Shown: positions 17,654-64,000 of the stretch, piece by piece
Numbering within the stretch: position 1 is the stretch's first letter
Layout: every line of letters begins with the position of its first letter
DNA from: an uncultured virus (IMG/VR IMGVR_UViG_3300028569_000010)
Taxonomy: Duplodnaviria; Heunggongvirae; Uroviricota; Caudoviricetes
Direction: 5' to 3' (one strand)
DNA: 64,000 nucleotides
Virus record (IMG/VR): IMGVR_UViG_3300028569_000010
Made by a program: the position numbers and the translations under genes
Notes under the pieces: generated by a model
Databases searched by the model: none
Told to the model about the DNA's origin: nothing
What the model saw: only the letters and a program-made list of their open reading frames with translations

Positions 17654-17664
17654 AAGGAAATAAA

Positions 17665-18282: not shown

Positions 18283-18285
18283 ATA

Positions 18286-18891: not shown

Positions 18892-18894
18892 AAT

Positions 18895-43000: not shown

Positions 43001-45615
43001 AATCCTTCTGATGGATCAAAATTATTAAAAGTTACATTATTGACACCAGATAACAACAGGCAGTTTTCAAAAGAGTCAGCTATCTTGCCGTAAAGTGGAT
43101 TATTATTATAACCACTAATAGCTGTCCAATCTATTGTTCTATAATCGGTTGGGTTATTAAATATTGAAGTTGTATTAAATCTTAATCCAAAATTAGAATA
43201 TAAATTTGCACTATGTTTTAAAACACCAGAACTACCGATTAAATCATCATAAATAACTTGCCCACTAATATTATCAAAATTAAAATAGCCATTTAAGAAT
43301 GGTGAGTCTACATATTCTCTAGTAAAAGCAAAATCTTCGAATTCTAATGTACTAAAAGATGAGTTAGATAAACCTTCTGAACCTTTCCATCTTCTTGAAT
43401 AATTTTGCTTAAAAGTTTCTGGAGAATCATAAGCGTGAGGAATTTCTGATATGGTAGATAATCTATTTGGAGTACTTGAAGTAGAACTATTTTCTTTAAT
43501 GTTTGGATATAGAATAAGATTATTTTTTTGATTATACTGTGGTTCTCCAAGCGTGTGCATAGCTAAAGCATTAGATGGCTTATAATTAATAACAATTTGC
43601 ATAGACGATATAGCAGCGCCACTTGGTAGTGGATATATGTCAAGATGTAGCTGCTCAAAGTATGTACTTAATCCATATTCTGGAGATTGACCTAATCTTC
43701 CTATGTCTGGATAAATCTTTAGTGGTATATTATATTCTCTAAACTCTGTTGAATTAACAACATTGGGGGAAAGTTTATAATGATCACCACCTATATTTAG
43801 AGGCTTAGTCTGAGAAAAATATTGAAATTTATCTGACATTGCCTCATTAGAAAAACCTAGTGAGTCTAGGGGAGCAAAACCAGATTCTTGTGGCACACTT
43901 CCGCTACCACCAATATCATTTTGTAGAAAACCACCAACATCAGATGTAACATTTAATAACTTGTCATCACTATACCCAACAATGTCTATGGCATAATCTC
44001 TAGAGCCAATAGATTTTTTAGCCTTAATTCTTAACGATATATTGTCAACAACGAAGAACTCATTTATTGGCGGTAATTTAACTAGCTCGGCAGTCCTAAA
44101 TGAACTACTTAAACTAGCAAAAGCGCCGCCCCTATAAACTAATAATGATTCTAGTGTTTTATGCGTGAATACTAAATGTAACTTACCAGAGTCTGCAATA
44201 GAACTAGATATTAATTCAATATAATCACTGTTGTCATCATTAATAATACTATTAACAAGTATATTAGAAGACGATGTTGTGTTATTTAATATTCTTGTTC
44301 CACTGCTACTTGGCGCAGACCCCCAAACCGTATCAACCTTTGGAAATACATTATTGCTATAACTAGATGGTAATAATACTTGTGGACTTAAAAATCTTTC
44401 TATCCTATCTCCAGTTTTGCGAACTTCAGTATAAAAATTTAAGTAAGTGTCATTTATTATATTTGCTGCACCAAAATTAAATATTTCAATTTCTGATATT
44501 CTTATACTATTAACTGGATTTAATGCCTCTTGCGACCTTGTAGAAAATGGAGAGCCGATGCTTAAATAATCATCATCATCAACAACTACATTATTATTTG
44601 ATATTTTATCATCAAACCCCTCATTAAATCCCGCAGTAAATGGAGCATCATTACTATCTATAACAATATCAAACGTGATAGTATAATCACCATTAGAATT
44701 TAGTATTGGATAATTTAAATCTTGAGTAGCTAATGTTGCATTATTTTTTATTGGCCTAGTTATATATGTTGTATAACTAATTTGATCTGGAGTATTATCA
44801 AAATTAGAATCACCGCGCACATCAATATCTCTATATTGGATTATTAAATTGCCGCTTGGATCTTCAAACTTAATATTTGATATAGTGTATTTATATGGGT
44901 TTTGGTCTGGATCATTAGGACTATAAAATGGGGCAGCTGCCCTAATAAATAATCTACTTTCTTTGGGTGTTAATCTAGGATTTTCTACGACTGCCTTATA
45001 TCTATAATGTCCACCAAGATAAATCGAAGATGGTAGAATATAAGATAGTGTATCGCTTATTGTTCTACCGTCGTTTCTAAAGTCACCAACAAATATGCCG
45101 CCGTTTATACTGTTAAAAAGATTTTCAGTTTGTAATTTTTCATTTACCAATACTTGACCGCTAAGAGAAGTTATTAAATCTTGCACCGGGTACAGTTTTT
45201 GAGTACCGTTGACGGGTGCAGCAAAGAAGTTATCATTATTATTTGCTTGTTCTTCTATATTGTCTAAGAATACATCCCCGCTTATTTTGTCGGCTACGCT
45301 ATTTAAACTAGATGCAGTAGATAAGATAGATTTAGAACTAAGTGTTAGACTTATATTTGGCCTAATAGATGTGCTAGTCAAAAGACTAGAAATAATATTT
45401 TGGGTAATATTGTAATTTTGTTTAGGAATACTAGCACTTGAAATAAGTTTAGTTAAACCTAAATCGCTAATATATAAACCAAATTTAGATGAAAGTGCAA
45501 TTCTTTGATTATAAGACATCTGAACAGTCAAGTCTGCCCCTAAGAAGCTAGAAGCAACTATATTAACTGGGCCTTCGCCGTTTAATCTAGATGAGCAAAA
45601 ACAGAATGTAGGCAT
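34090..45615 (-). CDS. Giant (3841 aa) adhesin-like virion protein with FG-GAP repeats and a LamG-like domain
   Basis: FG-GAP repeats FGYSVA..LVIGAP..AGSVYVY, FGKSVSI..IGSP, FGYSIAL..VVGSP, FGASLDI..LVGAP, FGNSVAI..ISAP; LamG-like segment near 42600-43060. Confidence 0.75.
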   Translation of the reverse strand: MPTFCFCSSRLNGEGPVNIVASSFLGADLTVQMSYNQRIALSSKFGLYISDLGLTKLISSASIPKQNYNITQNIISSLLTSTSIRPNISLTLSSKSILSTASSLNSVADKISGDVFLDNIEEQANNNDNFFAAPVNGTQKLYPVQDLITSLSGQVLVNEKLQTENLFNSINGGIFVGDFRNDGRTISDTLSYILPSSIYLGGHYRYKAVVENPRLTPKESRLFIRAAAPFYSPNDPDQNPYKYTISNIKFEDPSGNLIIQYRDIDVRGDSNFDNTPDQISYTTYITRPIKNNATLATQDLNYPILNSNGDYTITFDIVIDSNDAPFTAGFNEGFDDKISNNNVVVDDDDYLSIGSPFSTRSQEALNPVNSIRISEIEIFNFGAANIINDTYLNFYTEVRKTGDRIERFLSPQVLLPSSYSNNVFPKVDTVWGSAPSSSGTRILNNTTSSSNILVNSIINDDNSDYIELISSSIADSGKLHLVFTHKTLESLLVYRGGAFASLSSSFRTAELVKLPPINEFFVVDNISLRIKAKKSIGSRDYAIDIVGYSDDKLLNVTSDVGGFLQNDIGGSGSVPQESGFAPLDSLGFSNEAMSDKFQYFSQTKPLNIGGDHYKLSPNVVNSTEFREYNIPLKIYPDIGRLGQSPEYGLSTYFEQLHLDIYPLPSGAAISSMQIVINYKPSNALAMHTLGEPQYNQKNNLILYPNIKENSSTSSTPNRLSTISEIPHAYDSPETFKQNYSRRWKGSEGLSNSSFSTLEFEDFAFTREYVDSPFLNGYFNFDNISGQVIYDDLIGSSGVLKHSANLYSNFGLRFNTTSIFNNPTDYRTIDWTAISGYNNNPLYGKIADSFENCLLLSGVNNVTFNNFDPSEGFAFFVRLSPYIDANFQSGIIASKYTANNTLQFLLGYSGGYLYSQSTDNSGNLITVKDSVAYNSYSYPLGVLVTYNSDNSRKLNLYVDNELENYNSWNLKRNTSQGNFIITSGSSPIILGHDTRSSGNFNSFITNCGISNIANIVDGNTILQQKTINVNRFFDSFNAHYNFNDKHHLHSFIDEGVDDWSFGDYRHKDFSSSEFRTLSKRSGYDFIYYNIKNNGSPYSNKTHISLPSGFNANALSYHSQIENDFLRLSLSDAPDNFYSAGIRVNKNLPQGYNFIKDSLMVETVFEHISSGNIIWPNGERGPKLIVSLYTTNKDPSSYSAKNFGLINRGIHYLENKNYIGLLQTGFDFDSFVDESESWSIFPEEKRISEFNHKYFSSDLDKMFIQYDIAYPSGTPYESRLRINSVNVKLNNYISKQQDNNSFIDFVTNGQKYEFNFLDLVVRPHEESFDNLILNVSGGPIYKVDPQVVSLYISSVSGLDQNSIPIYIGGSVGNSFGSDDMLFGSIDPNAINLYISGQYVDNEFLNLHTVGPIQQIYAQNSSMPMVTYDIFNKETSYLPLFVRPSEAEAVILKYSTIFNLYTEVTDLTVTDSYFNLHTTNYFTTYDVSNSLDMRLDGYLDTILKSGERQIIWNGIRPGVNIKIDDNVYASIPVGNEIRGVDLICEGDCSSSGTCIEKGIYTHETQWTEDRCVDGGIFRAKTVYTNPTASGFGNTVGYSGNYYGIKKYEGLVPSAPYFISAKALTGNDNFNLVPPKFEEWEYGTNNNVAFSGTKIISNNRMENAKFGYSVATSKDLLVIGAPNETLIDNGSGVTNAGSVYVYRRLPEPSLNSGTLSSDKTGWVIEDRLTLPSGYVLDYPTLLSPVSPIAGLPIPRTQWNAGQEGRKLGSSLATAINSGIKSYGSNQREIIVAGGPDAEFSRTFDQISTNKIKTCVIVFADEFNPNESTYNNFYMEPMAFFDLELKQIMDQNNVLYKYYADPPLQIENKLLVIQPTGSFSNIYYDNYTRGNYLYQTLIPRSNTKAYLSNKQSIDEDMLRRTIDVFLEAFPPNDQEVHNNIPITIGIYCDNSKSLNRKAVEPLITNFSNWYREYSYASGLTNFYNTPTSGNVYEFFPSFNLAEDWKVMSKIILNNLLDTGRISNNNETFLFAESFGLGSINTNLQEFNFTPSLGGRVYVFEKESGSWNIVQELKNTSDFKYNGFGKSVSISDDSLNVLIGSPYVNEACHMLVYDPEVKDTIYNTLGSWLNYRNKINLLNIYNATSGNQYNKGFHTYGKLSQKEKFDYRQDTTFWGGNLPKEYKTNFIYNYDDIPYTGGEYKGWVLGQINTCRLGWSTAINEDGSVIAFGSPTDSLNRFDDTDLWYGALNTSNQSGLFPSEQYAGSVRVFQSRNYYSHNKVVSFSRFGNVGEESGDIEILGNIFNGGLNTPSYKKLEFSEIEIPKDAGLAFITTPSLDAASDEIISNIKDWLSLGDRTLVLVGNDPIYEDNGKYFQSNEIINKILSKLDSRMRLHPAKNKYEALAENNNCNQINILPSFQPVDITPTTVNYRQNFTGYGAADIRMHVPNHKTLYMPFCDFFNDRCQLPLAHNGDLRASFSVKYESKDRRGRKKLNGATINWARLFKSYKPSDYTSDSSFNNPWKYSSIYNLPNQEPRPLLVAGEYTQPYTLFYPAEPAESGLFPIYQTRTVQLPDLIENNTVYYWDAENVKDYNNQIQFLYNFQSGSIIYNGDFFDPLPSDRFDPIIQGKADIRQFDPVLRPRQIADRQVLCAEEIYTTPDDVGHNSQVALLATVLSESKNNLLGGSQDINIQFYTNLITVNESDVSKLRKNDYQCITPSIIGIIGGWTGRSSFKDGYIESFLAELFFDIDSIQADVQVFTGEIPSYINVCWIPNTKNAQPSDLDIVNIKNWLNLGGKKLIVTFDDSSASALAVRNLSNKLNINTQPVYLNAAGRFASSYDRLNAGENDDIPRFNNDSSVIKSCLSSLNNETIAIDSFYPDSLFDAGFGHSPFTPIQGKYYYQTKDTVKDVITRPFPIHDNEFIDVPAIWEIDGSASIDIPVIQNSGYTIFINYISEFENEILPINIYSPNFSNNPDPNPDDEGNQISFNTSLSNSGRSLLQTSTFTGRARNDFIRINFDTRNGNIGLLNSTNYVPHTHRIVSISGVFHPIGNASFVRRIPRTSFITEIVGQQWLMTYGGRAEYSVTIPAKLRPIMNNNTKYCEDICAYNNANGLVSEFYEPPRSPNGLPAPESFIFYCDKYEIKKNFDFNEGGYLDSPSLISTISCSNKEIEDGPVVAAQEEEHFSVFFNGHKRSNIILISDKSLVQGSCTLNNGLIKSNVINFISSLYPNNAPAELTQRGGKRFNISSKIISPERGSPVRYFHASGLTGLHSAFGGSTTKNTLILNQYSTNLSSINPGSVQRKQKSGKEQEDLENFYGDIVNNNSYIRWGASGVVFEGPDGRKQIVDRSQYSDSINGKIPRTVSKLGKDFIDIEHNDILFSGFVGDLFGYSIALYKNKLVVGSPFAGFSNENSVYNWSSGNSSNLQLSKYGGAGVVYIYENDNSGVNEIGQASRWSFKQKLRPQTINAGQDITNYQSSLSTIGTHNYSSGLLFSSSLHPDKFGASLDIDGDMLLVGAPFHDFSNYVEDIYNSGTAFIRKEFDFQFNIPLHKVTDLGSSQNRILYSGTPVLNRGAVFSYENEINNWQFKTQSWTLKEKLVPQGYNSNLQNYSENNMFGNSVAIERVDRVDAKYNAIISAPSHKYGLNVSSSGIDKAGSIHIYDGMIRNQPPAISNKNMWLNAKIFSDDKDLSEVVIDVDKSKYDKSNIEVISTGIVFTNSEGELYLEGSGLDGNQYGNIENRPYIESVYGQLLQGSKIENGIALFNAGPDQHIKSSGYMLLQVVAPSSAYVYNTLDFYTGSIISSGTRSLNLFNNAGTISGINNSLNIYTSGQGLLPSTLLLRGQGK
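34255..34264 (-). promoter_or_regulatory. TGTGTATAAT promoter-like motif
   Basis: Exact copy of the 3603 motif, inside the 3' end of the giant gene, about 170 nt upstream of ATG 34086. Confidence 0.35.
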
Positions 45616-45624
45616 TAATTGTCC

Positions 45625-48600
45625 TTATAATACAGATGTTCTTCCAAATTTAATATTACCAACATTATTTACTTTTACACCTTGTAACTTTTGTCCTAAG
45701 TCTTCCATCAATTGTTGTTTTAATCCATCAGCCATACTTTGTAGGAATTGACCGCCGTTAATATTTAGGTTTACATCACCCAACTTGTGTGAAACCTCAG
45801 TATTGCCCAACTTACCAACTTGCTCTGAGAAATTCTCCATAAATCCATCGAATCCTGACATGAATTTACCTAGTTGCTTAGAAAGTTTTTGTACATCAAA
45901 ATTAACGTTAGATATATTTCTTTCATTTTGAACAACTTTGTTTTGTGTATCCTGAGTTTGTAATGACTGTGGAGAGCTTGTTAATTGTTTAAATATATTG
46001 GGAATAGACGATGGGTTGTTATTTAATCTTTGTGCATTAGCTGTATATTGCCCATTATTAATAGATCTCAAGAAAGAGAGATTATCACCACGATTTACAG
46101 CACCCCTATTTACTACAAACTCGCCGGGAGTTAACATCGCTGGAACGGTATCTGTTCCCTTTGGAACAAAGTTAATAAGCTGTCCTTTACTAGCATACAC
46201 GATTCCGCCACGACTTCTGTTTTGAGGTTGGTTATTTAATATATCTGTATTTAAACCAGCATTTTGAATTTTTAATTCTGCCGTGGCTATATTCATTTCA
46301 GCGCGTGATACTTCCATAGCCGCCATTTCTGCACCAGTAGCACCGGCTTCACCTAATAATCCACCGTATTCTCTTAATCGCCTATTACTAGCCTCTTCTT
46401 CTTGGGTAGTACCAGCTAAGATTTGTGCCATTCTTGGGTTTTGTATACCTCTTGATCCTAGAGATGCTGTTGCGGAAGACTCTAGTAATCCACCAGCACC
46501 AGCAATTCTTTGACCAAATAGCTCAGTAACTCCAGCCTCTTTCTGTCTTTGTAAATTCTGATAAGCTCCACCTAAAGCCTGTCCACCAAATTGGTTAATA
46601 GCAGCTTGATTGCCAGTACCTATAGCGGCAGTTGCTCCTACAGCAGCCTGTTGTTCAAAAAACTTATCAATATCTCCAGCCAATAGTGATTCTAGAGAAT
46701 CTTTCTCTAGTTTATTTTTCTCTTTAGTTAACTTAAGCTGTTCTTCTTCTGCTGATATTAAATCTCTAATGAGTTTAACTTGATCCTGTTGAGCTTTTTT
46801 GAGATTTTCTCTAATTGCTTCATCTTTGACGCCTTGTTGGCCCGACACTTTACCCTGCAAAGCCTTTTGTTCTAGTGCAGCAAAATTACCACGAATTTGA
46901 TTTAATCCAGCGCGTAAAGATGCGGGATCTGAACCCCTTATATCACCTACGCCAGCAATTCTTCTACCAGCGTTTGCGCTTTCAATTGCCGCTTGTCTTT
47001 TTATTTCTGGAGTGACAGCCCTGCCACCGTATTTAGATTGTATTTCAAGACCTTCTAAGTTTAATGCTATAGACTGACGTTGGGCTTCAACAAAAGATCG
47101 CTCAGACTCAATTCTTTGCTTGTATAAAGTATTTAATTCAGAATTTACCTTTTGCAAATCAGATATCATCTGATTTACCTCTTTAGTCATACCAACACCA
47201 GCCTCATCTAATTTCTTAAGCAAGAAACTATAATCACCAGCAGCAATTTGCTCCCTTTCTTTGTCGCCAATCTCAATATCGCCTAAAGCATCACCAATTC
47301 TTTTACGAGCCTCATCACCAATTCCAGAATCTTTTAACTGTTGATCAACTAATGTACGAAATTTATCTCCTGCTGCTTCTGGACTCATGTTTGTAAATCC
47401 ACCAGCTTTAATGTCCTCTTTTAATTGATCAAAAATGCCACCAGCATTTCTCTGAACTTGTGCTAAAGCTGTAAGATTATCCTTAAATTTTGCAACTTGT
47501 TGATCACTAGCGCCAAGAGATTGCATAGTTCCTGTAACATCATTTAATGCGTTATTGAAATCGTTTTGGCTAATGTTTGCTCCAGCAGCGGTAAGGGCAG
47601 CTGTTAATGTATTAGCAGATTGAGCGACAGCCAAATTGCCAGCTTGTAGCCCAGCGGTAAAATTTGTAACAGAATTTACAGCAGCGCCAGTTACAGAAGT
47701 TACATTTCTCAAACCGAGATTCATTGCTTCAAATTGTTTTCTAGCAATTTCAACTTCTTTAGCGGTATTACCAAAAGCTTCTTTAAGTAATTTTAGTTCT
47801 GCTGGATTTTGATTATAAACCGCTTGTAATTCTTTTGGTAAACTAGCAAAAAAATCAGCAAAATTACCGCCAGCCACAGCTATATTTCTAGCTTGAGCAT
47901 TAATAGCTGGTGCCGCTTCTGATAATACTTTATCTTTATTTTCATTCGCTTTCTTAATTGATTCATCTCTATCTTTTTTCTCTTTGGCTGTATCTTGCGG
48001 TAAACGAGTTGCCATAGATTGAGCATTAGCAACAGATTGTGCCTGTCCAGAAAATTGGTTTAATACTTCTTTTGCACTTTTTCTACCTTCTGATAAATCC
48101 TTAAGAGCTTGGGTAGTCTGTTTAGCTTGGTCTTGCATTAACTTCATTGTATGAGAAGTAGCAGCCGTAGCTTGAGCAAACTGCTGAATGGTTGAAGTAC
48201 TCTGTATCCAACCACCAGTTAAGCTTGATAAAATATCCCTAGTTCCATTTGCAAAATTTTCCAAATTACCAGTAGCATACAATACTATTGCTCCAATTCC
48301 AACTATAGCAGCCGCAGCAATCGCTAATGGTACAACGAGAGAATATAAAGCAGTTGAAAGTCCAGCCAGTGGAGGTATCATTGATGTTACAGATGCTAAG
48401 AATAAAGGCACGATTGCAGCAACTGCCACAATACCACCAGCAAAAATACCACCACTATTAATAATATCTTCTTCAGCTGTTTTTCTAGCTGATAAAGTAC
48501 CAACTAATGCTATATTTCCATCTGCCATTGCCTTGTCATATTCTGCAACTGTTGTGCTAGTAGAATACAAAATACCAGCAGCTGCTGAAAATGCGGAAGC

Positions 48601-51600
48601 GGTAATGGTAGCAACACCAGCAACAGCACCTAAAGAAGAAAACAGTTTTTCAAATCCAACAGAAGAACTAGATATTCCAAAGAATTTTCCGACTTTTTCA
48701 TCTAATGTAGCTCCTACCTTAGCAAAAGTTTCACCTAATTTTTGTGGTATTGTAGCTATATCGCTAAAGCCTTTTATTTCAATACCAGCTACTGATTCTA
48801 ATATAGAAAGAGAACTACTAATAGCTGTAACAGAAGATAATGCGGCACTTGCAATGCGAGTAAACGCATCATCAGTACCACCAGCAGTTTGTATTAATCC
48901 ATTTAAAGCAGCACTAGCGCCAGTAAGAGCTTGACTAAACGTAAACATACTCTTATTAGATTTTTCGCCACCGCCACTGGCTGGTGTGCCAGAAGGAGCG
49001 CCAGCGTCTGGTGTCCCAGCAGGAGTACCACCGGCTGGAGTGCCACCCGATGGTATTGGAAACGGGAATGGAGTATCGCCGCGCCTTCTAGCTTCTGCAT
49101 CAAAACCTGCGGGTTGGCCACCAAATCTATATTCCATTTTTTCTTTAGCTATATCTTTTCTGCTTCTAGCGTCATCTAAAGCATTACGAGAGCTTTCTTC
49201 ATCTTTAGTAGCTTGATCTATGGTGTCAGCTAATCTGCTATAAGCAGTAACTAAAGTATCCATTTCTTTTTCAACTTCTTTTAGCTTTTGAGCAATTACA
49301 AGAGATTCATTTCCAGTTGCTGTTTTTGCTTGTTCTTTAAGCGTTTCTCTAACGTCATATAAATTGCCAATCTTTTCTCCATACGCTCCACCGCCATCCG
49401 AAAACCTAACTCTACCACCCTTATTCAATCCCAAAGCCTTAGTAGCTTTTGCTCTAACAATAAAACTACCAACTGGTAAATTAGCAGGAATACTATCACT
49501 AGTACCAGTTCCCGGCCCCTTGAATACGCTAATACCACCACCACCAGAGAATCCACTCATTCCATTACGGTCAGCTTGATTCATTCTATTTAACTTACCA
49601 TAACCAATTTTCTTAGCAATTTGTGGTGGAACATAAGCTTCACCATTACTTACTAAGGCTGGCACCGTACCGCCAGTTTCAAAACCAAGGCGACCACCAT
49701 TAGCTCTGCTAAAATACTGTAAAGCCATTGCTCCACTATTAGCATTATCTCCCATGCGTATAACAGAGTTTTTATCGTTAATTAACGATGGAGATTTACT
49801 ATAACCGCTTTGTAAAATCCAAGCCGGATCAGTTGGGGCTGGCCAAGTTTCAGGCTTACCGTAAAGTTTAGGATCAATGGCAGCTTGGTTTCTTGTCCAA
49901 TCATCTGGTTTAAGTGGAGTTTTCTTTACGTCACCCCTATTCTTAAAATAGTATTCCCAAACCTTTTTAGCTGCACCGCTTACGCTACTCCTATCAGAAG
50001 TTAACATGGCCCCCTTAGATGTAGCTTCTTCCATAACAGTATCATATAATTTTGGCCCATACCCTTGAGTTGCTTTAGATAATCCAACATAATATAAATA
50101 ATCGCGCATTTTATATGCTGATACATATCCTTCTCTTTGATCGTTCTTAAAGTATGAAGCATTGATTGTATTACCATCAGAACGTAATCCTATTTTACCA
50201 TAATTTTTCTCTTTTTTAGCTGGTACTTCTTCTGATGGTTTTCTGTTACCGTAAAGACCTTTCATTAATCCTTGCATTTGATCCGTAGAATCAGCTAATC
50301 CACCAACAGAGTATGACTGTCTTTGTATTCCAGCATTTCCTAATAATTCATTTAGTGTAGCATCAAGAGTTGAGGATAATACTCCATCAAGCTTATTTGC
50401 ATTTTGTACAAGTGTGGTTAAAAATTCTTCCTTTCCACTATCTTCTATTCTATCAATATATGATTGTTTTAAACCATTATTTAATAAAGTTTGATTTATG
50501 TCTGGATTGAGTGGCTTAAATTCACGCGCTTTTTTTATACCCATAGACTTTACCCACAGACCCAAAGCTTCTTGATGGGCAGTTTCGCTATTGGGTGTTG
50601 TTTCAAGCTTGTTTTTATTGGAACTAATAATATTATTTAGATTAGAAACTTTATAAGATTTACCATATACAACATCAGCACTTGAGTAGCTGCTATTAAG
50701 AGCATCAAAAGCCTCTGAAAGATCATCGTTATCTCCTGTGAATAACTGAAGAACTCGCTCTTTGTATTTTGTGAAACTCTCAGCGTTTCTAGTTCTTAAT
50801 CCATTAATTAGTTGGTGAGTCATTTCGTGATAGAGAGTGCTACTATCACCACCAGTTGAAGATGATCTAAAGGGGTCAGATGTTCTAACTGATATTGAAC
50901 CACGACCAGTTTTCGCGGCTTTACCTTGTATGTCTTGGATAGTTTGTTCTAAAGCCGTAGATTTCAAGGAAGAAACTTTTCCATAGTTGTTTTGCGCAGC
51001 CCCGAGTTCGTCCCATACGGCCCTGGCGGCTTCTGTATCATAGCTAAAACTCCCATCATCATAAGTCTTTACGGGAGTCTTGGTAATTTTATCAGCCTGT
51101 TTTCTTTTTTCTTCTATTAATTTTTTATATCCATATAAATCTTGTTCGTGAGCTTTTGTAAATCCGGCTCCAGATACATCAAGTGATTCTACTCCTCTTG
51201 AAGTCATACCAGTTCTATCAAATTGACCCAAACTTTTTAGATTAGGAACAAAGTCTATAATTTTTGGTAGAGCCAAGTCGATGTTTTCACTAGGCAAACC
51301 AATTAACTTTGTAAAGTCTGCCATATCTTGATAAAGTGAGTCTCTTTTTATTTTGCCAGTAAAAGTGGACAGGAATCTATTTTTATCAAAGGGCTTATCA
51401 TGAGCTTCTCTTACTTTATTCGCATCAATTGACATTGTTTCGTTTTTTGGAGAAGAGTATGTATTATTAAATATTTGTTCAGACGCTTTCTTAAGCTGGG
51501 CGTCTCTTATCTCTCGCTCATAAGCATTAGAAATTCTTTTTGGAAATTCTGTTGTACCAGTTCCAAAGCCAACTTTACCAGCTTTGGCAAATTTTCTAAC

Positions 51601-54600
51601 AGTACCACCACTATTATAACCCATCACATTCTTAAGATAAGTAACAATATTATCTTTAATAGTCGAGGGGCCAGATAGAGTTCTCTTAACGTCGGTAGGA
51701 ACATTTGGATCTATATTAAAATATTTAGCAGCGCCTTGCAATCCTTCTGGAAAATCAAATCCTTTACCCTTAACAGCGCCGGGGCCACCAAGTTGTTGAA
51801 TTATTTGCTCAATTAATCCACCCTGAATTGTCGCATTAGTATTAGCATTTAATCCCTGAAGGGGGCTTTGTGTAACAGGTGATTTGGACTTTCCAGCCGT
51901 AACTATATCAGTACCTTGACTAATAATATTACTAACGCCTTGACTCATAGTAGTGCTAAGTCTTGTAGCTGTAGCTTGATCCATTACTCCGCTAATAACT
52001 CTAACCATTCTTGAGCTAGATAATTTATCAGATTCAATTTTAATATTTTTAGCTGCAAAAGCTTTTCCAAATAATCCAGCAGCACCAAATTCTAGTCCCT
52101 TTCCTCTCAACTTAGTTGTCTGAGCTTTAGCTGATGCCCCTTGGCGTTTTACCTTTTGAACATAAGCTTCTTTTACAGCATCTTTTACCTTTTGTTCTTC
52201 TGGGGTCAATTCTCTTCTCAAGCCCATAATATCATATGTTTTAATCTGATCTACGCCAGAAGCAACAGCGGCCTCATCTCTGGATAAAACTTTAAATATA
52301 TCGCTTCTACTATTTGGGGCCACAATTTCTTTAGCTTCCTGCGGAACACTAACTTGTTCAGATTTTACTTCTTTATCAACAGCGTCCTTAACTTTTTGTA
52401 AAGTTGGAGATAACTGTATTCCATCACCATTAAAAGATAAACCGGGTCTAAAATAAGAAGATGACTTACTAGAATCAACGATGTGTTGTTTGACAGAATC
52501 TTCAGTAACTGGTATATCTATTGGCTCTTTTCTTGATGCATCTAAACCATATATATCTGGATATCTATCACTTATAATTCTAATGAGTTCGTGGGCTGGA
52601 TCTAAGAAAGTATCTCTTTGGAATATATCTCTATTTTTTCTTAGTGAAGTAATTTGCTTAACTAAATTGGGATGAGCTTCCTTAAATTTAGGAGTCATTC
52701 TTGTGAACGGGCCACCAGAAGCGTTTTGTAATATTCCATCTACTTGTTCATTTACCTTACTTGTATTTGCCTGTGTGAATATATCTAAAGCTTGTTGTAC
52801 TAGTGGAACCATCATCCTGCGATTACGCAATTGTGGTTGATTAGATTTAATAGCAGAACCAACCTTTGGCAATACCGCTAAATCTAATTTAGCGTAATCT
52901 TTATCAATTACAGCTTGCCTTGTGGCTGTACCGCTAATACTATCACCCTCAGTATCAGCTGATCTAGCTATATTATATGGAGTTAATCCAGCAGATCTAT
53001 ATCTTTCCATTACGCCTTCTGGATTTTCATTTTCTGCTTTAGATATGACAACTGGGGCATCTTTTTCCATTACGGCAAATCTTCTTCGACCAGTAGCACC
53101 CTTCTCAATTTCAGCAATTCGTGAATTAATACCAGTTTGTGATGGACTATTAGCAGATGATATCATCATCTCTGGTAAAGCTAATTTAATTAAATCTCTT
53201 CTAAATGACGCCGGATATTCCCCATATCTTGAACCATGCTCTCTACCTTGCGATCCGCCATCTAAAGATAAATCTGGGGCAAGAGCAAATAATAAATCTT
53301 TGTGGGTTGCGTCTGGATATTTTTCTCTTACCTTTTCAAGCAATGTACCTACAGCACTTTCAGCGTGTCCTCTAGTTAATGGAGAGGCGGCACCTGGAAA
53401 TTGACCTTTAGCACTAGCAAGTTCTGGTAATTCTTCTAGACGCTTTCTTCTTATTTGAAAGCGTGGAGTGCCTGCTTGGTCAGTTTTTTCACCAAGAGTC
53501 ATGACCTTACCTTTATTGGTACGATCTTCTGTTGTGCCAAATTGTGATATTAGTGACGCTGTTTGTAAACCATAGTCTGAATTCAAACCTTCGGTAGTTC
53601 CTGTTTCTCTACCATATAAAGTAGGATCTTTTTGAAGGTTGCGTTGTCTTTCAAATAACTTAACTAATTTTTGTTCATCTTCAGTAGAAGAATCTTTTAC
53701 GTAAATTCTATCAGCCATTCCCATATAGTCTAGCTTAGACTCTTTTAGAGTGGTTGTCAACGACATTACTTGATCAACATCTTTTAAATCATCTGGATGT
53801 AAAATTTGTTTTCTAGTTGTTTTCCTCAATGTGGCATTATCGTTAGCTCCACGACCAGTAGCGACACTACTTTTGCGATTAGCAGCAGCACCAGCCATAA
53901 CGCTAAACCTGCCCAATGCTCCAGACTGCCTTGCTTCTCCAGCTAGTTTAGATAACTTAATGCCATAATCAGCTTCAGACTTAGCATCTAATAACTTCAT
54001 GCCTTCAGCTACTCTTGCTGCATTTTTCTTATCTCTAAGAACGTCAGTATCTATAATTCCAACTCTGCGTTGAGCAACACCACCTTCTTCAAATCTTTGA
54101 ACAATGCCACCTGAATTTAAACCAATTTCTTTTTTAAGATTAGGATCTATTTGATAAAGAATAGTGCTACCTATATTAACTGGAGGTTTATCGTCTATAG
54201 ATGATGTAAAACCTTTTGGCAAACCAGAGTATTTTATTGTATGTCTTAATCTTTTTGCTAATATTGTTTCATCTGATGTTGGGTCTTTCCTAAATCTAAC
54301 TTCTATAGGATCTCCCCCGCCAACAAAATCTAAAGGATCATATTTATTTTTTGTCTTTCTATATCCAGATTTATTTTCTACTTTGGTTAAGTATGCTCCG
54401 ATAAAATCTTCAAAAGCTAAACCTTTTCCAAATGAGAATTCTTTGGTTCTTCCAGATTCTGTGAATTTTGTTTTAGCGTTAGAAGCTATTTGTGAAGCAA
54501 AAGTTTTTTTGGGATTGCTTGATTCGTTATAATATTTTTGAATTTTTTCTTCATCAATAGTTTTTCTATCAATATTGCCTAATATTTTATCTTTCTGATT

Positions 54601-56196
54601 TAACTCTTTATATCTAAGCATATAAGATTTAATAGGCTTACCGCTAGGAGCATCAGAAGCTTTTTCTACTGTTATAGGTCCACCCTTAGCTCTATTATTC
54701 ATTTTTACCAAATTACCAGCACCATACTTTTGTACAGCTGCACGATTCATAACAACTTCACCGGGAGTCAACATCGCCGGTACGCTATCTCTATTACCAA
54801 CACCGGGAACCATGCCACCCTTTTCAAAACCCAGCACTCTACCACCATTACTAAATCTACCAGAAGCCATTCCACGCGGTATAGAAGTCAAGAAACTACC
54901 TATGCCACGACTGATGTTAATAGCCATCATTGCGGTAAGAAGTGGAATAACTGGTGTTAAAGCTTCACCAATCTTTATAAAAGCAGAGGCAAGATTTAAT
55001 GCAGTATTAACGAATAATTGGAAACCGCGACTTTCTGTTACGCCTCTAATAAAAGCAAGAAACTCTTCTTTTACTTTGGTGATACGAATGGCTAGTGCTT
55101 GCTGTGCGGTTATGGCGTTTGTTGTTAAACCATCGCCAGCTTTTTGGGCGACATTTAATGCTTGTTGAGCAATAGCAAATTGTTGTAAGAGTGGAAGAAC
55201 TTTACCAATCTGTCTAAATCCGCCTAACTCTTCAGCAATGCGTATAAACGTTAAGTCTCCTTCTCCTAAACCATTTAATGCAGCACTTAATCTTTTAACT
55301 GCTTCAAATGGGCCAACGAATCTACCCTCTAGATCAACTAGTTCGATACCGAACTGTTTTAAGTACTCAATAGTCTTTGGTCTTTGTATACGTGTAAAAA
55401 TTGTTCTTAAGCCAGTACCAATACTCTCTGCACTTTCGCGCGTAGTAGCTCTTACGCTAGTAAAGAGGGCGAGAAGTTCATTAAGATCACCACCAGATGA
55501 TTTAAACACGCCACCAGTTCTTCTAATAACGTCAATTAAGTCAGCAGCTTCAACGGCAAATGCACCAGCGACGGCATCTATAGAAGATAGTTGACCTTCT
55601 AATGCCTGAACACCTAAACCGAACTGTGCCAAAATAGCAATAGCACCTTCAGTAGTTTCTGTAATACTATCAAAGTTAGGGGCTAATGCTGCCTTGGCTA
55701 ATGTTCTTAAAGCAATAGCGGTCTCGTTAGCAGATAAACCGGCCTGCTTTAGAATAGTAGATACTTCAAGCAAAGATTTAGACTCTACGCCCAAACTAGT
55801 AGCAAGTTCAGTTATAGTAGAAGTTAAACCTTTTAACGAAGCTATACTTTGATTACTTACCTGTGCAACTTTAATTAATTGTCTTTCAAATTCTATAGCA
55901 TCTCTAATAGCGCCAGCTAAACCGTTAGTAAATAATCCTACCGCCCGTGTGGCTATAGAAAATGAAGCGAATCGTTTTAACGAAACACCAAAAGCTGTTC
56001 CCATACGTTCTGCCGCAGTTGTGGCATCGTTGGTAGCAGCCCTAATTTGATTTATTTGTCTAGTAGCAGACGCAGCATTCTGTACATTGACGGGTATATT
56101 TACACCCGCCAATTGGCTTTGAATCTGATTTACTACTTGACGAATATTACTTGGTGCTTGTAGTTGTAATTGGGCAGTCAAAACAAATCTGGACAT
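45625..56196 (-). CDS. Tail tape measure protein with inserted enzyme-like domains (3523 aa)
   Basis: N-terminal TP901-type TMP core (FERQLIKVAQV..QAGL..ESIGTGLRTIFTR), Ala/Gly-rich hydrophobic helices near 48250-48900, coiled coils, D[ST]VPAMLTPGE.V motifs; follows the tail tube and chaperone genes. Confidence 0.92.
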   Translation of the reverse strand: MSRFVLTAQLQLQAPSNIRQVVNQIQSQLAGVNIPVNVQNAASATRQINQIRAATNDATTAAERMGTAFGVSLKRFASFSIATRAVGLFTNGLAGAIRDAIEFERQLIKVAQVSNQSIASLKGLTSTITELATSLGVESKSLLEVSTILKQAGLSANETAIALRTLAKAALAPNFDSITETTEGAIAILAQFGLGVQALEGQLSSIDAVAGAFAVEAADLIDVIRRTGGVFKSSGGDLNELLALFTSVRATTRESAESIGTGLRTIFTRIQRPKTIEYLKQFGIELVDLEGRFVGPFEAVKRLSAALNGLGEGDLTFIRIAEELGGFRQIGKVLPLLQQFAIAQQALNVAQKAGDGLTTNAITAQQALAIRITKVKEEFLAFIRGVTESRGFQLFVNTALNLASAFIKIGEALTPVIPLLTAMMAINISRGIGSFLTSIPRGMASGRFSNGGRVLGFEKGGMVPGVGNRDSVPAMLTPGEVVMNRAAVQKYGAGNLVKMNNRAKGGPITVEKASDAPSGKPIKSYMLRYKELNQKDKILGNIDRKTIDEEKIQKYYNESSNPKKTFASQIASNAKTKFTESGRTKEFSFGKGLAFEDFIGAYLTKVENKSGYRKTKNKYDPLDFVGGGDPIEVRFRKDPTSDETILAKRLRHTIKYSGLPKGFTSSIDDKPPVNIGSTILYQIDPNLKKEIGLNSGGIVQRFEEGGVAQRRVGIIDTDVLRDKKNAARVAEGMKLLDAKSEADYGIKLSKLAGEARQSGALGRFSVMAGAAANRKSSVATGRGANDNATLRKTTRKQILHPDDLKDVDQVMSLTTTLKESKLDYMGMADRIYVKDSSTEDEQKLVKLFERQRNLQKDPTLYGRETGTTEGLNSDYGLQTASLISQFGTTEDRTNKGKVMTLGEKTDQAGTPRFQIRRKRLEELPELASAKGQFPGAASPLTRGHAESAVGTLLEKVREKYPDATHKDLLFALAPDLSLDGGSQGREHGSRYGEYPASFRRDLIKLALPEMMISSANSPSQTGINSRIAEIEKGATGRRRFAVMEKDAPVVISKAENENPEGVMERYRSAGLTPYNIARSADTEGDSISGTATRQAVIDKDYAKLDLAVLPKVGSAIKSNQPQLRNRRMMVPLVQQALDIFTQANTSKVNEQVDGILQNASGGPFTRMTPKFKEAHPNLVKQITSLRKNRDIFQRDTFLDPAHELIRIISDRYPDIYGLDASRKEPIDIPVTEDSVKQHIVDSSKSSSYFRPGLSFNGDGIQLSPTLQKVKDAVDKEVKSEQVSVPQEAKEIVAPNSRSDIFKVLSRDEAAVASGVDQIKTYDIMGLRRELTPEEQKVKDAVKEAYVQKVKRQGASAKAQTTKLRGKGLEFGAAGLFGKAFAAKNIKIESDKLSSSRMVRVISGVMDQATATRLSTTMSQGVSNIISQGTDIVTAGKSKSPVTQSPLQGLNANTNATIQGGLIEQIIQQLGGPGAVKGKGFDFPEGLQGAAKYFNIDPNVPTDVKRTLSGPSTIKDNIVTYLKNVMGYNSGGTVRKFAKAGKVGFGTGTTEFPKRISNAYEREIRDAQLKKASEQIFNNTYSSPKNETMSIDANKVREAHDKPFDKNRFLSTFTGKIKRDSLYQDMADFTKLIGLPSENIDLALPKIIDFVPNLKSLGQFDRTGMTSRGVESLDVSGAGFTKAHEQDLYGYKKLIEEKRKQADKITKTPVKTYDDGSFSYDTEAARAVWDELGAAQNNYGKVSSLKSTALEQTIQDIQGKAAKTGRGSISVRTSDPFRSSSTGGDSSTLYHEMTHQLINGLRTRNAESFTKYKERVLQLFTGDNDDLSEAFDALNSSYSSADVVYGKSYKVSNLNNIISSNKNKLETTPNSETAHQEALGLWVKSMGIKKAREFKPLNPDINQTLLNNGLKQSYIDRIEDSGKEEFLTTLVQNANKLDGVLSSTLDATLNELLGNAGIQRQSYSVGGLADSTDQMQGLMKGLYGNRKPSEEVPAKKEKNYGKIGLRSDGNTINASYFKNDQREGYVSAYKMRDYLYYVGLSKATQGYGPKLYDTVMEEATSKGAMLTSDRSSVSGAAKKVWEYYFKNRGDVKKTPLKPDDWTRNQAAIDPKLYGKPETWPAPTDPAWILQSGYSKSPSLINDKNSVIRMGDNANSGAMALQYFSRANGGRLGFETGGTVPALVSNGEAYVPPQIAKKIGYGKLNRMNQADRNGMSGFSGGGGISVFKGPGTGTSDSIPANLPVGSFIVRAKATKALGLNKGGRVRFSDGGGAYGEKIGNLYDVRETLKEQAKTATGNESLVIAQKLKEVEKEMDTLVTAYSRLADTIDQATKDEESSRNALDDARSRKDIAKEKMEYRFGGQPAGFDAEARRRGDTPFPFPIPSGGTPAGGTPAGTPDAGAPSGTPASGGGEKSNKSMFTFSQALTGASAALNGLIQTAGGTDDAFTRIASAALSSVTAISSSLSILESVAGIEIKGFSDIATIPQKLGETFAKVGATLDEKVGKFFGISSSSVGFEKLFSSLGAVAGVATITASAFSAAAGILYSTSTTVAEYDKAMADGNIALVGTLSARKTAEEDIINSGGIFAGGIVAVAAIVPLFLASVTSMIPPLAGLSTALYSLVVPLAIAAAAIVGIGAIVLYATGNLENFANGTRDILSSLTGGWIQSTSTIQQFAQATAATSHTMKLMQDQAKQTTQALKDLSEGRKSAKEVLNQFSGQAQSVANAQSMATRLPQDTAKEKKDRDESIKKANENKDKVLSEAAPAINAQARNIAVAGGNFADFFASLPKELQAVYNQNPAELKLLKEAFGNTAKEVEIARKQFEAMNLGLRNVTSVTGAAVNSVTNFTAGLQAGNLAVAQSANTLTAALTAAGANISQNDFNNALNDVTGTMQSLGASDQQVAKFKDNLTALAQVQRNAGGIFDQLKEDIKAGGFTNMSPEAAGDKFRTLVDQQLKDSGIGDEARKRIGDALGDIEIGDKEREQIAAGDYSFLLKKLDEAGVGMTKEVNQMISDLQKVNSELNTLYKQRIESERSFVEAQRQSIALNLEGLEIQSKYGGRAVTPEIKRQAAIESANAGRRIAGVGDIRGSDPASLRAGLNQIRGNFAALEQKALQGKVSGQQGVKDEAIRENLKKAQQDQVKLIRDLISAEEEQLKLTKEKNKLEKDSLESLLAGDIDKFFEQQAAVGATAAIGTGNQAAINQFGGQALGGAYQNLQRQKEAGVTELFGQRIAGAGGLLESSATASLGSRGIQNPRMAQILAGTTQEEEASNRRLREYGGLLGEAGATGAEMAAMEVSRAEMNIATAELKIQNAGLNTDILNNQPQNRSRGGIVYASKGQLINFVPKGTDTVPAMLTPGEFVVNRGAVNRGDNLSFLRSINNGQYTANAQRLNNNPSSIPNIFKQLTSSPQSLQTQDTQNKVVQNERNISNVNFDVQKLSKQLGKFMSGFDGFMENFSEQVGKLGNTEVSHKLGDVNLNINGGQFLQSMADGLKQQLMEDLGQKLQGVKVNNVGNIKFGRTSVL
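48965..49060 (-). repeat. Low-complexity GTPA-type peptide repeat linker in the TMP
   Basis: PSGGTPAGGTPAGTPDAGAPSGTPASGGG; locally GC-rich. Confidence 0.7.
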
Positions 56197-56227
56197 TTTA
56201 TTCTCCGTGAAATGACTGCACTATCTA

Positions 56228-57091
56228 TTAACTGTCCGCTTCTTTTTTCTTTGATGACTTCTTCTTTGTTTTCTCTTTTACTTCGGTAGAAACTGATTCA
56301 GATTCTTCGTCCGTATATTCAGCCTGTAAAGCTAAAGCTCCGTCAGAATCTAATATGTGGCCTTCCATGTCTACTCTCTTTCCATCTTCGTTTAAGTAAT
56401 AACCCTCGTTATCTATTCTTTTACCGTCTATGTCTACTAGGTTATTCTCTGCATCCACCAAACTTAAATCACCATTGACAAAGTTAAACTTTCTAAGAAA
56501 TTTATTCTCTGGAAGTTTTTCTTCGAACTCTTTGTCTATAGAATACATCATTTGAGCTAAAGCATTAGCGGCAGCATAAGCTACTTCATCGTCCGCTTTT
56601 ACGTTGTAATCTTCTAGAGAATTATACACTTTTGTATTACCATCTTCAAGATATACGCAGTTAGCAACTAGAAAATCGAACTTAGAATTTTCAGATAAAG
56701 CTTCAGCAGTATTTTGCTCAAGACTTAATCTTTCAGATATAAGGTTACGTAGCATTAATCTAAGTCTACGCATAGAAATTGCAATTTCTTTACCGCGCTT
56801 TTTAGTTAACTTACCATCTGTACCTAGAGCGAGTTCTCTTTCTAAATTAGATATAGAATCAACTAAAGCCTGCTGCTGTTGATCTTTTTCAGAATCCCAA
56901 ATGTTTCTATTACGCATAAAAACTTCTAATTCTTTCTTTGTCATAATGCCATCGCGTGTACAGTTTGTCCACACTTTAGCACCAAGCAATTGGGCGTCTG
57001 ATAGCAACTTGTTACTTGGTTTCTTGACTAAAACCTTCTTAACTGTTCCATCTTCCAATTTAACTTCAACTTGTCTCTGTTTTTCTTTCAT
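56228..57091 (-). CDS. Putative tail assembly chaperone (paralog 2)
   Basis: Immediately upstream of the TMP; helical; similar to 57421..58455; C-terminal D-x-[DE]-G repeats. Confidence 0.6.
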   Translation of the reverse strand: MKEKQRQVEVKLEDGTVKKVLVKKPSNKLLSDAQLLGAKVWTNCTRDGIMTKKELEVFMRNRNIWDSEKDQQQQALVDSISNLERELALGTDGKLTKKRGKEIAISMRRLRLMLRNLISERLSLEQNTAEALSENSKFDFLVANCVYLEDGNTKVYNSLEDYNVKADDEVAYAAANALAQMMYSIDKEFEEKLPENKFLRKFNFVNGDLSLVDAENNLVDIDGKRIDNEGYYLNEDGKRVDMEGHILDSDGALALQAEYTDEESESVSTEVKEKTKKKSSKKKEADS

Positions 57092-57094
57092 TTT

Positions 57095-57421
57095 TTACTC
57101 CTTGTTTATAACTGGCATTGTTATATTATATCTTAGCCATTCGACATTATACTGAGATAATTCAGCATCAATATTTCTGGCTTGATGATTTCCCTTATCT
57201 AATATCTCCGAACGCATTGCTTGATATAATTCAAGCATTTTCTTTTGATCTTCTGTTAGCTTACTTGTGTCGCTATTCCATAAAAATCCAAAATATTTTT
57301 CCATAGCACTCAATGCACCAATCATGGTAGTTTGTACTTTCTTCTTCAATATTTTAGATAATCTATCTTTAGAATCAATTTGATATTTTTTATCTCTAAT
57401 AGTCTTATAATCCTTTTCCAT
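57095..57421 (-). CDS. Hypothetical protein
   Basis: 108-aa ORF with SD AGGAGG, between the chaperone-like genes. Confidence 0.75.
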   Translation of the reverse strand: MEKDYKTIRDKKYQIDSKDRLSKILKKKVQTTMIGALSAMEKYFGFLWNSDTSKLTEDQKKMLELYQAMRSEILDKGNHQARNIDAELSQYNVEWLRYNITMPVINKE

Positions 57422-58455
57422 TATTTCCTCCTAACAGTTTGTAAAAATTGTTGAGTTTGTTTAGCCTGCTGGTCTAAAATCTCATCTTGGAATTTATCTT
57501 GAGTTACAGAGCCTTGTTGATTAATTACGGCCTGTCTTTGTTTTTTAATCATCTTAGCATGGTAGGTATTAATACTTTCAATATCTTTAGCTTCATCAAC
57601 GCTAGATGCCATTAAATATACTTCAGAAGAATTTTTAACTTTACTATTCATTTTTTTATCCATATCCTGTTCTACCTTTTCCTGTTTCCTTTTACGTGAC
57701 TGAAATATTAGCCATCCATCCAACATATCGTCATCATCTATTACATCTTCGCTTGGGCAATCCATTGATTCATGTATATTATCATATGTTTGCGACCACA
57801 GAACTAAGTTTTGTTGATTTATCGTAATGTCACGCCCTAGATCTAGGAATAGATTTTGTTTATTATTACCCTTGATAAACCACAAAGATCGCCAAGGTTC
57901 ATTGCGCGCCAATTCTCTTATGATATCTTCTTGTAGGATACTTTCGCGGAAACAATCTAGAGCATAATCTAATTCATCGTCATCTAAATCACACACCCTA
58001 TCATTTCGAAAACAGTTACGTTTTATAATATATCTTAGTTTCTCTAGGTTGGCTATACTTTCACAAGTATTATAGTAATATAAGTTTTTTTTGCTTATTT
58101 GATCATTAAGTTTTTTCTCAATAGATCTAAGATATCTCTTTAGTTGACTTGCTTTGTTTTTTTCTTTATTGAGCTTGTATACTTCTACTTTGATATCCTC
58201 TATATTTTTTCTTATACCTTCTAAGTCTTTTTCTTCGTGATGGCTCCATAAATTATGTTCTATCATCCACTCTGCCATTTGATGTTCGTTCATCATCTCT
58301 TCATTAAGAGCATTAAAGTATGCTTGGTCATATATTTCACATGACTCTAATCTGTCCTCAATGGTGGGGGGATATAATTCACAGTTTAGTTTTGGTATTT
58401 TGATCTTACCAAATCTGATCTTTAATAAAAAAAGCTCTCGCTTTTGAAAGTCCAT
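57421..58455 (-). CDS. Putative tail assembly chaperone (paralog 1, with C-terminal extension)
   Basis: Directly downstream of the tail tube gene; N-terminal half resembles 56228..57091. Confidence 0.55.
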   Translation of the reverse strand: MDFQKRELFLLKIRFGKIKIPKLNCELYPPTIEDRLESCEIYDQAYFNALNEEMMNEHQMAEWMIEHNLWSHHEEKDLEGIRKNIEDIKVEVYKLNKEKNKASQLKRYLRSIEKKLNDQISKKNLYYYNTCESIANLEKLRYIIKRNCFRNDRVCDLDDDELDYALDCFRESILQEDIIRELARNEPWRSLWFIKGNNKQNLFLDLGRDITINQQNLVLWSQTYDNIHESMDCPSEDVIDDDDMLDGWLIFQSRKRKQEKVEQDMDKKMNSKVKNSSEVYLMASSVDEAKDIESINTYHAKMIKKQRQAVINQQGSVTQDKFQDEILDQQAKQTQQFLQTVRRK

Positions 58456-58481
58456 TATAGAACCTCACCAGCGAGAGCTTT
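58427..58481 (-). promoter_or_regulatory. Hairpin covering the SD and start codon of 57421..58455; terminator/attenuator-like
   Basis: Perfect 12-bp inverted repeat AAAGCTCTCGCT (58431-58442) / AGCGAGAGCTTT (58470-58481). On the - strand its 3' arm runs into U7. Confidence 0.7.
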
Positions 58482-58484
58482 CAT
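58455..58484 (-). CDS. Putative 9-aa leader peptide MKALAGEVL
   Basis: SD AAAGGA 5 nt before the ATG; stop TAA overlaps the next ATG (TAATG). Confidence 0.5.
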   Translation of the reverse strand: MKALAGEVL

Positions 58485-58522
58485 ATGTTTCCTTTATATT
58501 CCTAATTTGTTAACTTATATTA

Positions 58523-59680: not shown

Positions 59681-59711
59681 GAGTTACTCTCCTATAGAAT
59701 ATGTTGTTAGT

Positions 59712-63999: not shown

Positions 64000-64000
64000 T

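Follow-up and report, generated by a model that had tools for sequence, protein, structure and literature searches.

Tape measure proteins (TMPs) with embedded enzymes and injected polyvalent proteins are both already known from phages. The TMPs of mycobacteriophages are reportedly of ordinary size and hold one or a few inserts. Small enzymatic motifs embedded in such proteins have been described, for example in TM4 (PMC1796659). Injected polyvalent proteins carry shuffled enzymatic domains (PMC5512222, PMC7824862); they are very large, virion-delivered proteins in which unrelated domains, among them peptidase, GNAT, kinase, nucleotidyltransferase and ADP-ribosyltransferase (ART) domains, are strung together and shuffled, and release of these domains by a metallopeptidase has been proposed (Iyer et al. 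2017, PMC5512222). The stretch of 64,000 nucleotides (nt) considered here, called the window, is part of a 165-kb contig of an uncultured virus (IMG/VR record IMGVR_UViG_3300028569_000010), and on its minus strand, at 45625..56196, a single open reading frame (ORF) encodes a giant TMP of 3523 amino acids (aa; P0001) in which a GG-containing element recurs. This element is probably a conserved joint of a mosaic TMP whose enzyme-like cassettes are exchanged, and the protein is read as a polyvalent virion protein of the TMP type whose joints are marked by a defined, conserved motif. Such a joint appears undescribed: a full-text literature search, with subscription-only papers outside its coverage, gave no description of such an element, and a literature search for the core peptide strings returned no paper.

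Cleavage is known from the TMPs of phages lambda and T5. As the lambda tail matures, gpH is cut toward its C-terminal end, at about residue 690-730, in a region rich in glycine. The product gpH* comprises approximately residues 1-710; the N-terminal part of gpHC (about 690-817) is unresolved, and the cleavage site and the protease are unknown (PMC12617516). T5 pb2 is cut between a hydrophobic segment and the metallopeptidase motif, which separates the enzymatic domain (10.1101/2022.09.20.507954). The likeness of pb2 lies in an enzyme-bearing TMP that is cut so that its enzymatic part leaves the tape measure, and the difference in there being one cut and one enzyme; lambda gpH differs in its single module-like copy near the C-terminus and in the lack of inserted enzyme cassettes. 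Farther afield, the polyprotein proteases of adenovirus and African swine fever virus cut at GG-X sites, and Tal of the lactococcal phages Tuc2009 and TP901-1 is said to undergo glycine-rich cleavage (GGSSG/GG); in both cases the proteins and the proteases differ.

The carrier in the window is a TP901-type TMP, since PF10145 (aa 127-312, E 2.3e-23, 83.6 bits against a cut-off of 33.2) and TIGR01760 (aa 89-377, E 7.9e-28, 97.5 bits against a cut-off of 28.8) both match above their curated cut-offs, and several PHROG TMP families match the N-terminus as well. From this TP901-type N-terminus the protein appears to run through a string of unrelated enzyme-like cassettes, which would include, among others, an HExxH cassette, a GNAT-like fold and a nucleotidyltransferase-like region, into a hydrophobic coiled-coil body, with each cassette apparently bounded by a short or a long form of one element. 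It differs from the polyvalent proteins in its carrier, a TMP, and in its defined joint motif, and the LPD and MPTase Pfam families gave no significant match to it; the terms 'tape measure' and 'linker' do not occur in the polyvalent-protein paper (PMC5512222).

A sequence-only reading of this DNA had named six GG stretches, placed them at the boundaries of the enzyme-like segments and offered two explanations, a processing site or a modular joint. All six are present where it had located them, and all lie in the one ORF. From the N-terminus onward (the TMP gene and all of its parts are on the minus strand), they comprise module A (aa 447-506, 54679..54858), with the GG strand FSNGGRVLGFEKGG, the core DSVPAMLTPGEVVMNRAAV and a closing RAKGG; the stand-alone joints motif B (aa 691-706, 54079..54126; GLNSGGIVQRFEEGG) and motif C (aa 1525-1540, 51577..51624; GYNSGGTVRKFAKAG), the latter with a degenerate second GG (AG); motif D (aa 1955-1966, 50299..50334; AGIQRQSYSVGG, containing QSYSVGGL), a degenerate joint ending cassette 3; a run at 49387..49713 formed by module E1 (aa 2162-2210), module E2 (aa 2211-2254) and motif F (aa 2255-2270; GLNKGGRVRFSDGGG), which PHROG TMP families match over aa 2162-2270; and module G (aa 3326-3385, 46042..46221), in which SRGGIVYASKG (from aa 3328) is followed by DTVPAMLTPGEFVVNRGAV and then INNG. 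The stretches A, E and G of the sequence-only reading each open, as its N-terminal strand, a longer module (about 58 aa). One further copy, in E2 at aa 2216-2227 (FSGGGGISVFKG), is absent from that reading.

These copies exceed what composition would yield. In 1000 shuffles of the window TMP, which is 9.5% glycine, the GG dipeptide as such is only slightly in excess (44 against 31.1 expected, 1.4-fold), and none of the 1000 shuffles reached the observed counts of [FY]xxGG (10 against 1.9), of GG-x-[VILMA]-x(0-2)-[FYW]-x(2-3)-G (7 against 0.30) or of the two-GG form (4 against 0.03). Each of six related giant TMPs holds 5-13 copies of the motif where 0.2-0.6 are expected, and 255 proteins together hold 2174 where 122.5 are expected. 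A masked self-comparison of the window protein links A with G (E 1.7e-9), with E (8.8e-6) and with E2 (1e-3), and motif B with F (7.8e-4) and with C (0.02). Motif D found no significant match in this comparison; it is taken as a degenerate copy because relatives show a fuller motif at its position, [GA]G-I-x-R-x-x-[FY]-x-x-GG, which closes the HExxH cassette.

The element occurs in two forms. The short one, of about 12 aa, follows GG-h-h-x-[KR]-[FY]-x-x-GG, and the long one, of about 58 aa, consists of a GG strand, the core G-x-D-x-V-P-A-x-L-x-P-G-E-x-V...N and a second GG strand; sites A, E1, E2 and G run on into the conserved core, and B, C, D and F each consist of the short form only. An alignment over about 58 aa of 21 copies from the window TMP and the six related giant TMPs gives the consensus xGGxVYAxxGxxVxxxPxGTDTVPAMLTPGEFVVNRxAxxxxxxxLxxINxG, with G6, G7, G15, D25, L31, P33, G34, E35, V37, L51 and N55 invariant. 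Over the 255 proteins the motif forms a module's N-terminal strand 705 times and comes immediately behind a module 522 times; it stands by itself 543 times and lies within a module 40 times, and the stand-alone consensus is [FLKY]-[AN]-x-GG-[LIV]-[IV]-Q-[KR]-F-[AM]-x-GG. In Pfam and NCBIfam scans no family covers the long module; PHROG TMP families from cultured phages match it, mostly toward their C-terminal ends.

The 21-copy profile, compared with 1.84 billion representative proteins, matched 22,935 of them at E <= 1e-3, 6,702 at E <= 1e-10 and 1,048 at E <= 1e-30; the best 150 of the 22,935 mostly measure 3000-7900 aa, down to 935 aa for a few, and each shows 4-14 matched stretches. With aa 1960-2280 as the query, a word-indexed search returned 215 proteins of 1937-6166 aa, most of them with PF10145 and on contigs of up to 238 kb, and at eight related viral-contig loci, two of which end at a contig edge, the TMPs range from 3435 to 6560 aa. 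The module is present in 251 of the 255 proteins (median 4 copies), and its last copy ends a median of 166 aa before the C-terminus. Beyond these giant proteins, two internal copies were found in the TMP gp16 of mycobacteriophage Douge (968-1012 and 1412-1460, E 1e-5); the literature consulted on mycobacteriophage TMPs describes no recurrent separator. The module also occurs in the cyanophage virion proteins S-SCSM1_213 (aa 592-645) and S-SM2_012 (aa 334-381). Both cyanophages are T4-like, and the module-bearing proteins of S-SCSM1 (L010 2264-5116) and S-SM2 (L011 2996-5296), named 'lysozyme' and 'transmembrane protein' in the records, are encoded behind the gp26 and gp51-like hub genes, a position that makes them look like tape measures of the gp29 type.

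Homology between the window protein and its relatives breaks preferentially at the element. BLASTP against 254 relatives gave 1049 high-scoring segment pairs (HSPs), of which the 625 of at least 100 aa were kept, and removal of ends within 20 residues of either protein's terminus left 1025 internal ends. Half of these (514, 50%) fall within 10 aa of the six intervals of the sequence-only reading, which with this margin make up 9.7% of the protein, a 5.2-fold excess. Peaks of homology ends flank module A (aa 420-459 and 500-519), ends cluster around motif D (aa 1940-1999), and 64 lie at module G (aa 3320-3339). As a check on bias, 70 random relatives were compared all against all, with self-hits and HSPs below 120 aa dropped and ends collected in 5-aa bins: of the 8936 end bins, 1055 are no more than 5 aa from a motif, where 348 would be expected (3.0-fold), in comparison with 1273 against 824 (1.5-fold) for other GG dipeptides. 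A break within about 15 aa accompanies 520 of 569 motifs and 1463 of 2845 random positions, and in a test with seven proteins 75 of 206 ends were near motifs where 25.1 were expected.

The same boundaries can be read in the DNA. The closest relative, L001, was compared with the window at the nucleotide level and aligns in four blocks of 83-88% identity (aa 1-500, 692-1531, 2167-2263 and 2409 to the end), between which the sequences are unrelated. The second block starts in motif B (aa 692) and ends at the GG of motif C (aa 1531), the E-F block runs from GG to GG, and homology resumes at SGGGEKS (aa 2409). By our own reading of the printed alignments all six transitions lie at GG codons, namely at RAKGG/SASGG, GL(N/S)xGG, NSGG, (N/M)GGRLGFETGG, GLN(K/R)GG and SGG(G)EKS; a strict count places five of the six within 4 aa of GG. 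In a wider survey of the 21 pairs of seven genes, restricted to blocks of at least 200 nt and without ends within 15 aa of the termini, 30 of 78 junctions are within 4 aa of GG, against 7.6 expected.

What lies between the joints varies from protein to protein. At a coverage of at least 70%, the N-terminal core (440 aa) is found in 215 of the 254 relatives, cassette 1 in 10 and the parts 2a, 2b and 2c of cassette 2 in 57, 6 and 114; 28 relatives have cassette 3, 118 have cassette 4 and 103 have the E-F unit. Cassette presence ranges from 3 to 215, and the blocks between joints are distributed independently. Two other sequences take the place of cassette 1 in proteins whose remaining parts are 80-87% identical (one in P0153 and P0154, the other in P0155), and cassette 1 is replaced in L001 too. 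Neither P0155 nor L001 has the window-type HExxH cassette, and the HExxH found in L001, at aa 1920, is a different one. Motif B of P0157 leads straight into the HExxH cassette, which is followed by a joint ending in YVEGG and then by the cassette that follows B in the window. Domain shuffling among the relatives is extensive, as it is among polyvalent proteins, and homologs do vary at the motif positions, with cassettes replaced, absent or reordered where homology breaks.

Structure prediction for aa 1960-2280 adds a third line of evidence. The AlphaFold2 (AF2) model of this region, built on a 19-sequence alignment, has a mean predicted local distance difference test score (pLDDT) of 69; cassette 4 is well folded (pLDDT 74-95), the cores of E1 and E2 form two small hairpin-plus-helix units (62-78), and the stretches with motif D, the E GG strand and motif F are all below 50. 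Since these three fall in low-pLDDT linkers, no mismatch between motifs and predicted boundaries was found in the modelled region. The placement of the motifs at segment boundaries, which had been proposed from the sequence, is thus borne out by the AF2 linkers, the homology ends and the L001 DNA junctions together.

A conserved joint between exchanged cassettes is supported because motif enrichment, structure prediction, breakpoints in protein and DNA and cassette permutation agree, so that of the two explanations first offered it is the modular joint that gains most, from the HSP breaks, the GG-codon junctions in L001, the cassette changes and the AF2 linkers at D, E and F. Several points weigh against it. 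The 254 relatives are a biased set, 150 having been selected with the module profile and 104 for their homology to aa 1960-2280, and conserved motifs by themselves attract HSP ends. The end peaks at aa 1220-1299 and 1420-1459, which mark internal homology boundaries of cassette 2, and that at aa 1980-1999 have no motif. In the DNA survey 48 of 78 junctions, in distant pairs, lie away from GG; most of these misses come from pairs of about 70% identity, in which block ends are imprecise. Low pLDDT is no proof of disorder, and the module folded alone gave no reliable model (AF2 mean pLDDT 52.5). Finally, the word joint describes a location and not the whole function, because the invariant G, D, L, P, G, E, V, L and N exceed what a passive linker needs.

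As to mechanism, the cassettes may be exchanged by recombination at a short shared coding stretch (GGTGG and its flanks); alternatively, in-frame survivors of exchange may have been selected at the joints. The conservation of the peptide itself could be explained by a partner that reads it, for which a maturation protease, the tail lumen or hub, and other TMP chains are candidates.

If that partner were a protease, the element would be a processing site at which a phage or host protease, or the embedded HExxH peptidase, cuts at or beside GG and frees the cassettes, either during tail maturation or after injection. Such cleavage would be compatible with a joint, and we regard it as possible without favoring it. 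A conserved motif within a predicted flexible linker resembles a short recognition site, and the metallopeptidase-driven release proposed for polyvalent proteins would offer a parallel. HExxH is strongly enriched in the relatives, with 108 motifs in 89 of 255 related proteins against 0.8 expected; however, it is lacking in the other 166, including the motif-rich P0155, L003, L007 and L008. No residue dominates past the second GG (V occurs 161, S 119, L 108 and I 73 times; Y, K, T and others also occur), and no GG-specific protease was found to accompany the element, HExxH being patchy in the 255 relatives and the 43 other ORFs of the window, which is itself only part of the 165-kb contig, being without a peptidase family.

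The comparison with the two cleaved TMPs bears on the same question. In lambda gpH, F..GG, G.G, PA..h..GEFV, NL and GG.V follow one another in aa 727-785 in the same order as in the module when compared by eye, and this stretch, laid out like a module, is close to the glycine-rich region in which gpH is cut. The profile match is weak, though (aa 754-780, with E 0.33 over the whole PDB and 7e-5 for gpH as a single sequence), PF09718 covers aa 627-701 of gpH and not the module-like stretch, and the link to cleavage is an analogy because the lambda cut site and protease are unknown. In T5 pb2 (L012 14122-17781) the sole GG of the last approximately 700 residues is at 1130-1131, in PRAEGG (1126-1131); by our own derivation, a 92-residue pb2C would start near residue 1128, adjoining PRAEGG and 2-3 residues before GG. 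Against this, pb2 has no match to the module profile.

Taken further, the GG-PGE element could be a general maturation-cleavage signal of TMPs, represented by the lambda gpH site, with a counterpart beside the T5 pb2 cut, and reused in giant TMPs as a polyprotein separator that frees enzymes entering the host with the DNA. This generalization is distinctly unlikely on present grounds. Were it true, one tail-lumen protein would give rise to separate enzymes, namely a GNAT, a nucleotidyltransferase-like enzyme, an HExxH peptidase, a nuclease-like enzyme and, in relatives, an ADP-ribosyltransferase. Two narrower forms of cleavage were rejected, obligatory self-processing by the embedded HExxH peptidase on account of the 166 of 255 relatives without HExxH, and intein-like self-cleavage on account of the lack of a conserved Ser, Thr or Cys nucleophile after the second GG.

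The partner might instead be the tail itself. The GG strands and the PGE core would then fold only in the assembled tail, where they would serve as anchoring nodes that keep the bulky cassettes in register, through contacts that may involve three or six TMP chains, the tube lumen, the hub or chaperones. This is somewhat unlikely, a little more so than cleavage. It would account for a core that is strongly conserved across paralogous copies and very distant TMPs, for the copy that is always near the C-terminus in 251 relatives (a median of 166 aa away), and for low-confidence monomer models, as expected if the segment depends on a partner; the C-terminal part is the one that contacts the hub in lambda, T5 and Douge. 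However, the Douge structure resolves only TMP residues 1658-1699, outside both module copies, and in lambda it is residues ~690-817, the N-terminal part of gpHC, that are unresolved.

That the element acts at the level of DNA alone, as a GGTGG-containing repeat serving as a recombination hotspot or microhomology with an incidental peptide, is improbable. Junctions do lie at GG codons, and motif copies have 8-11 nt in common (for instance GGTGGTAGAGT in A and F); yet the copies encode the same residues with different codons (GGT/GGC/GGA, AGA/CGC), conservation is at the amino-acid level and includes aromatic and basic positions, the element is kept over 22,935 proteins in many lineages, and ordinary GG shows a break enrichment of only 1.5-fold against 3.0-fold for the motif. 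Chance, that is, low-complexity glycine-rich sequence without specific meaning, can be dismissed, since despite the 9.5% glycine and the merely 1.4-fold excess of GG overall no shuffle reached the motif counts, self-matches are significant and the element is conserved in hundreds of relatives.

As a joint, the element gives a simple rule for dividing thousands of giant unannotated TMPs (22,935 profile matches) into functional units, and it suggests where cargo could naturally be plugged in when phage tails are engineered. It also offers a specific candidate sequence for the place and manner of gpH cleavage in lambda.

The enzyme identities of the cassettes are weakly supported overall. None of the cassettes, scanned as single sequences against Pfam and PHROG with lenient thresholds, had a significant match, and at E <= 10 Pfam gave no match at all to cassettes 1-3, the MPTase and LPD families included. 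Cassette 1 (aa 507-690, 54127..54678) is variable and matches no family; by eye, a D..E.K pattern may hint at a nuclease-like domain.

Cassette 2 (aa 707-1524, 51625..54078) contains a degenerate Walker-A-like stretch, PxTxGH and ISxTxxR. In its part 2a (aa 707-1000, 53197-54078) the P-loop reads GAAANRKSS in the window and in L001 and is intact (GxAGSGK[ST]) in L004 and L008, and PxTxGH and ISxTxxR are kept in all four. We take the latter two motifs to recall nucleotidyltransferases of the NMNAT/PPAT kind. A PDB profile search with cassette 2a gave E values of 0.3-1.9, none significant (a glucokinase P-loop at 0.92, PPAT at 1.8), and the Atlas match to CTP_transf_like (score 0.75) is a lead only. 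From these motifs, cassette 2a may be a kinase and nucleotidyltransferase pair whose kinase is inactivated in the window TMP.

Cassette 3 (aa 1541-1954, 50335..51576) carries HEMTH, an HExxH motif, at aa 1790-1794, and its Atlas matches to LPD23, LPD1 and LPD5, polyvalent-protein-associated families (scores 0.87-0.90), are likewise leads only. This window-type HExxH cassette is present in 32 of the 254 relatives. Among the 255 proteins at least three recurrent types of HExxH cassette were noted, with TLYHEMTHQLF, TVAHETGHLAD and ILAHETFHDIQ.

Cassette 4 (aa 1967-2161, 49714..50298) has a folded core at aa 1999-2149 that is tentatively assigned a GNAT-like fold from the consistency of weak Foldseek rows: the top PDB rows are nearly all GNAT acetyltransferases, the best being 1yx0 at E 3.7e-3 and none reaching 0.001. 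Pfam Acetyltransf_16 appears only at E 0.15, and a PDB profile search with aa 1960-2280 found nothing. One relative, P0209 (2471 aa), has PF03496, an ADP-ribosyltransferase exoenzyme family, besides PF10145 in its precomputed Pfam list, and the cassettes of the family therefore include ART-like domains.

The remaining parts of the TMP are its TP901-type N-terminal core (aa 89-377, 55066..55932; TIGR01760), a variable coiled-coil and Pro/Gly-rich segment (aa 2271-2408, 48973..49386) that is replaced in L001, the hydrophobic and coiled-coil body (aa 2409-3325, 46222..48972), which matches phrog_1272 TMP weakly and is 84.5% identical to L001 in nucleotides, and a C-terminal tail past the last module (aa 3386-3523, 45628..46041).

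The TMP gene sits among large ORFs in a minus-strand block, and its neighbors are without family matches except for FG-GAP and RCC1 repeats. Megablast of 56000-64000 of the window against cultured-phage records gave no match. FG-GAP repeats (PF14312, E 4.3e-21) were identified in a protein of 3841 aa encoded directly downstream of the TMP gene (34090-45615, minus strand); PHROG gave no match to this protein, and its L001 counterpart, encoded in the same position, is at least 3329 aa long. At the edge of the structural block (62302-63963, minus strand), seven RCC1 repeats are fused to DUF285. The G+C content of the TMP gene at 46001-50000 is 0.39-0.40, against 0.27-0.36 elsewhere in the window, which probably reflects the Gly and Ala content of the protein.

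Genes for replication and for glycosyltransferases are found in the plus-strand half of the window. A DNA polymerase III alpha homologue is split there (4799-8936), with the PHP and NTPase domains at 4799-6379 and the finger domain at 7377-8936, and between the two halves lie an RNase_T-like exonuclease gene (6372-7052) and an endonuclease VII gene (7012-7377). It is followed on the same strand, at 9257-19749, by a series of glycosyltransferase genes (GT1 family and GT34-like) together with two FkbM-type methyltransferases.

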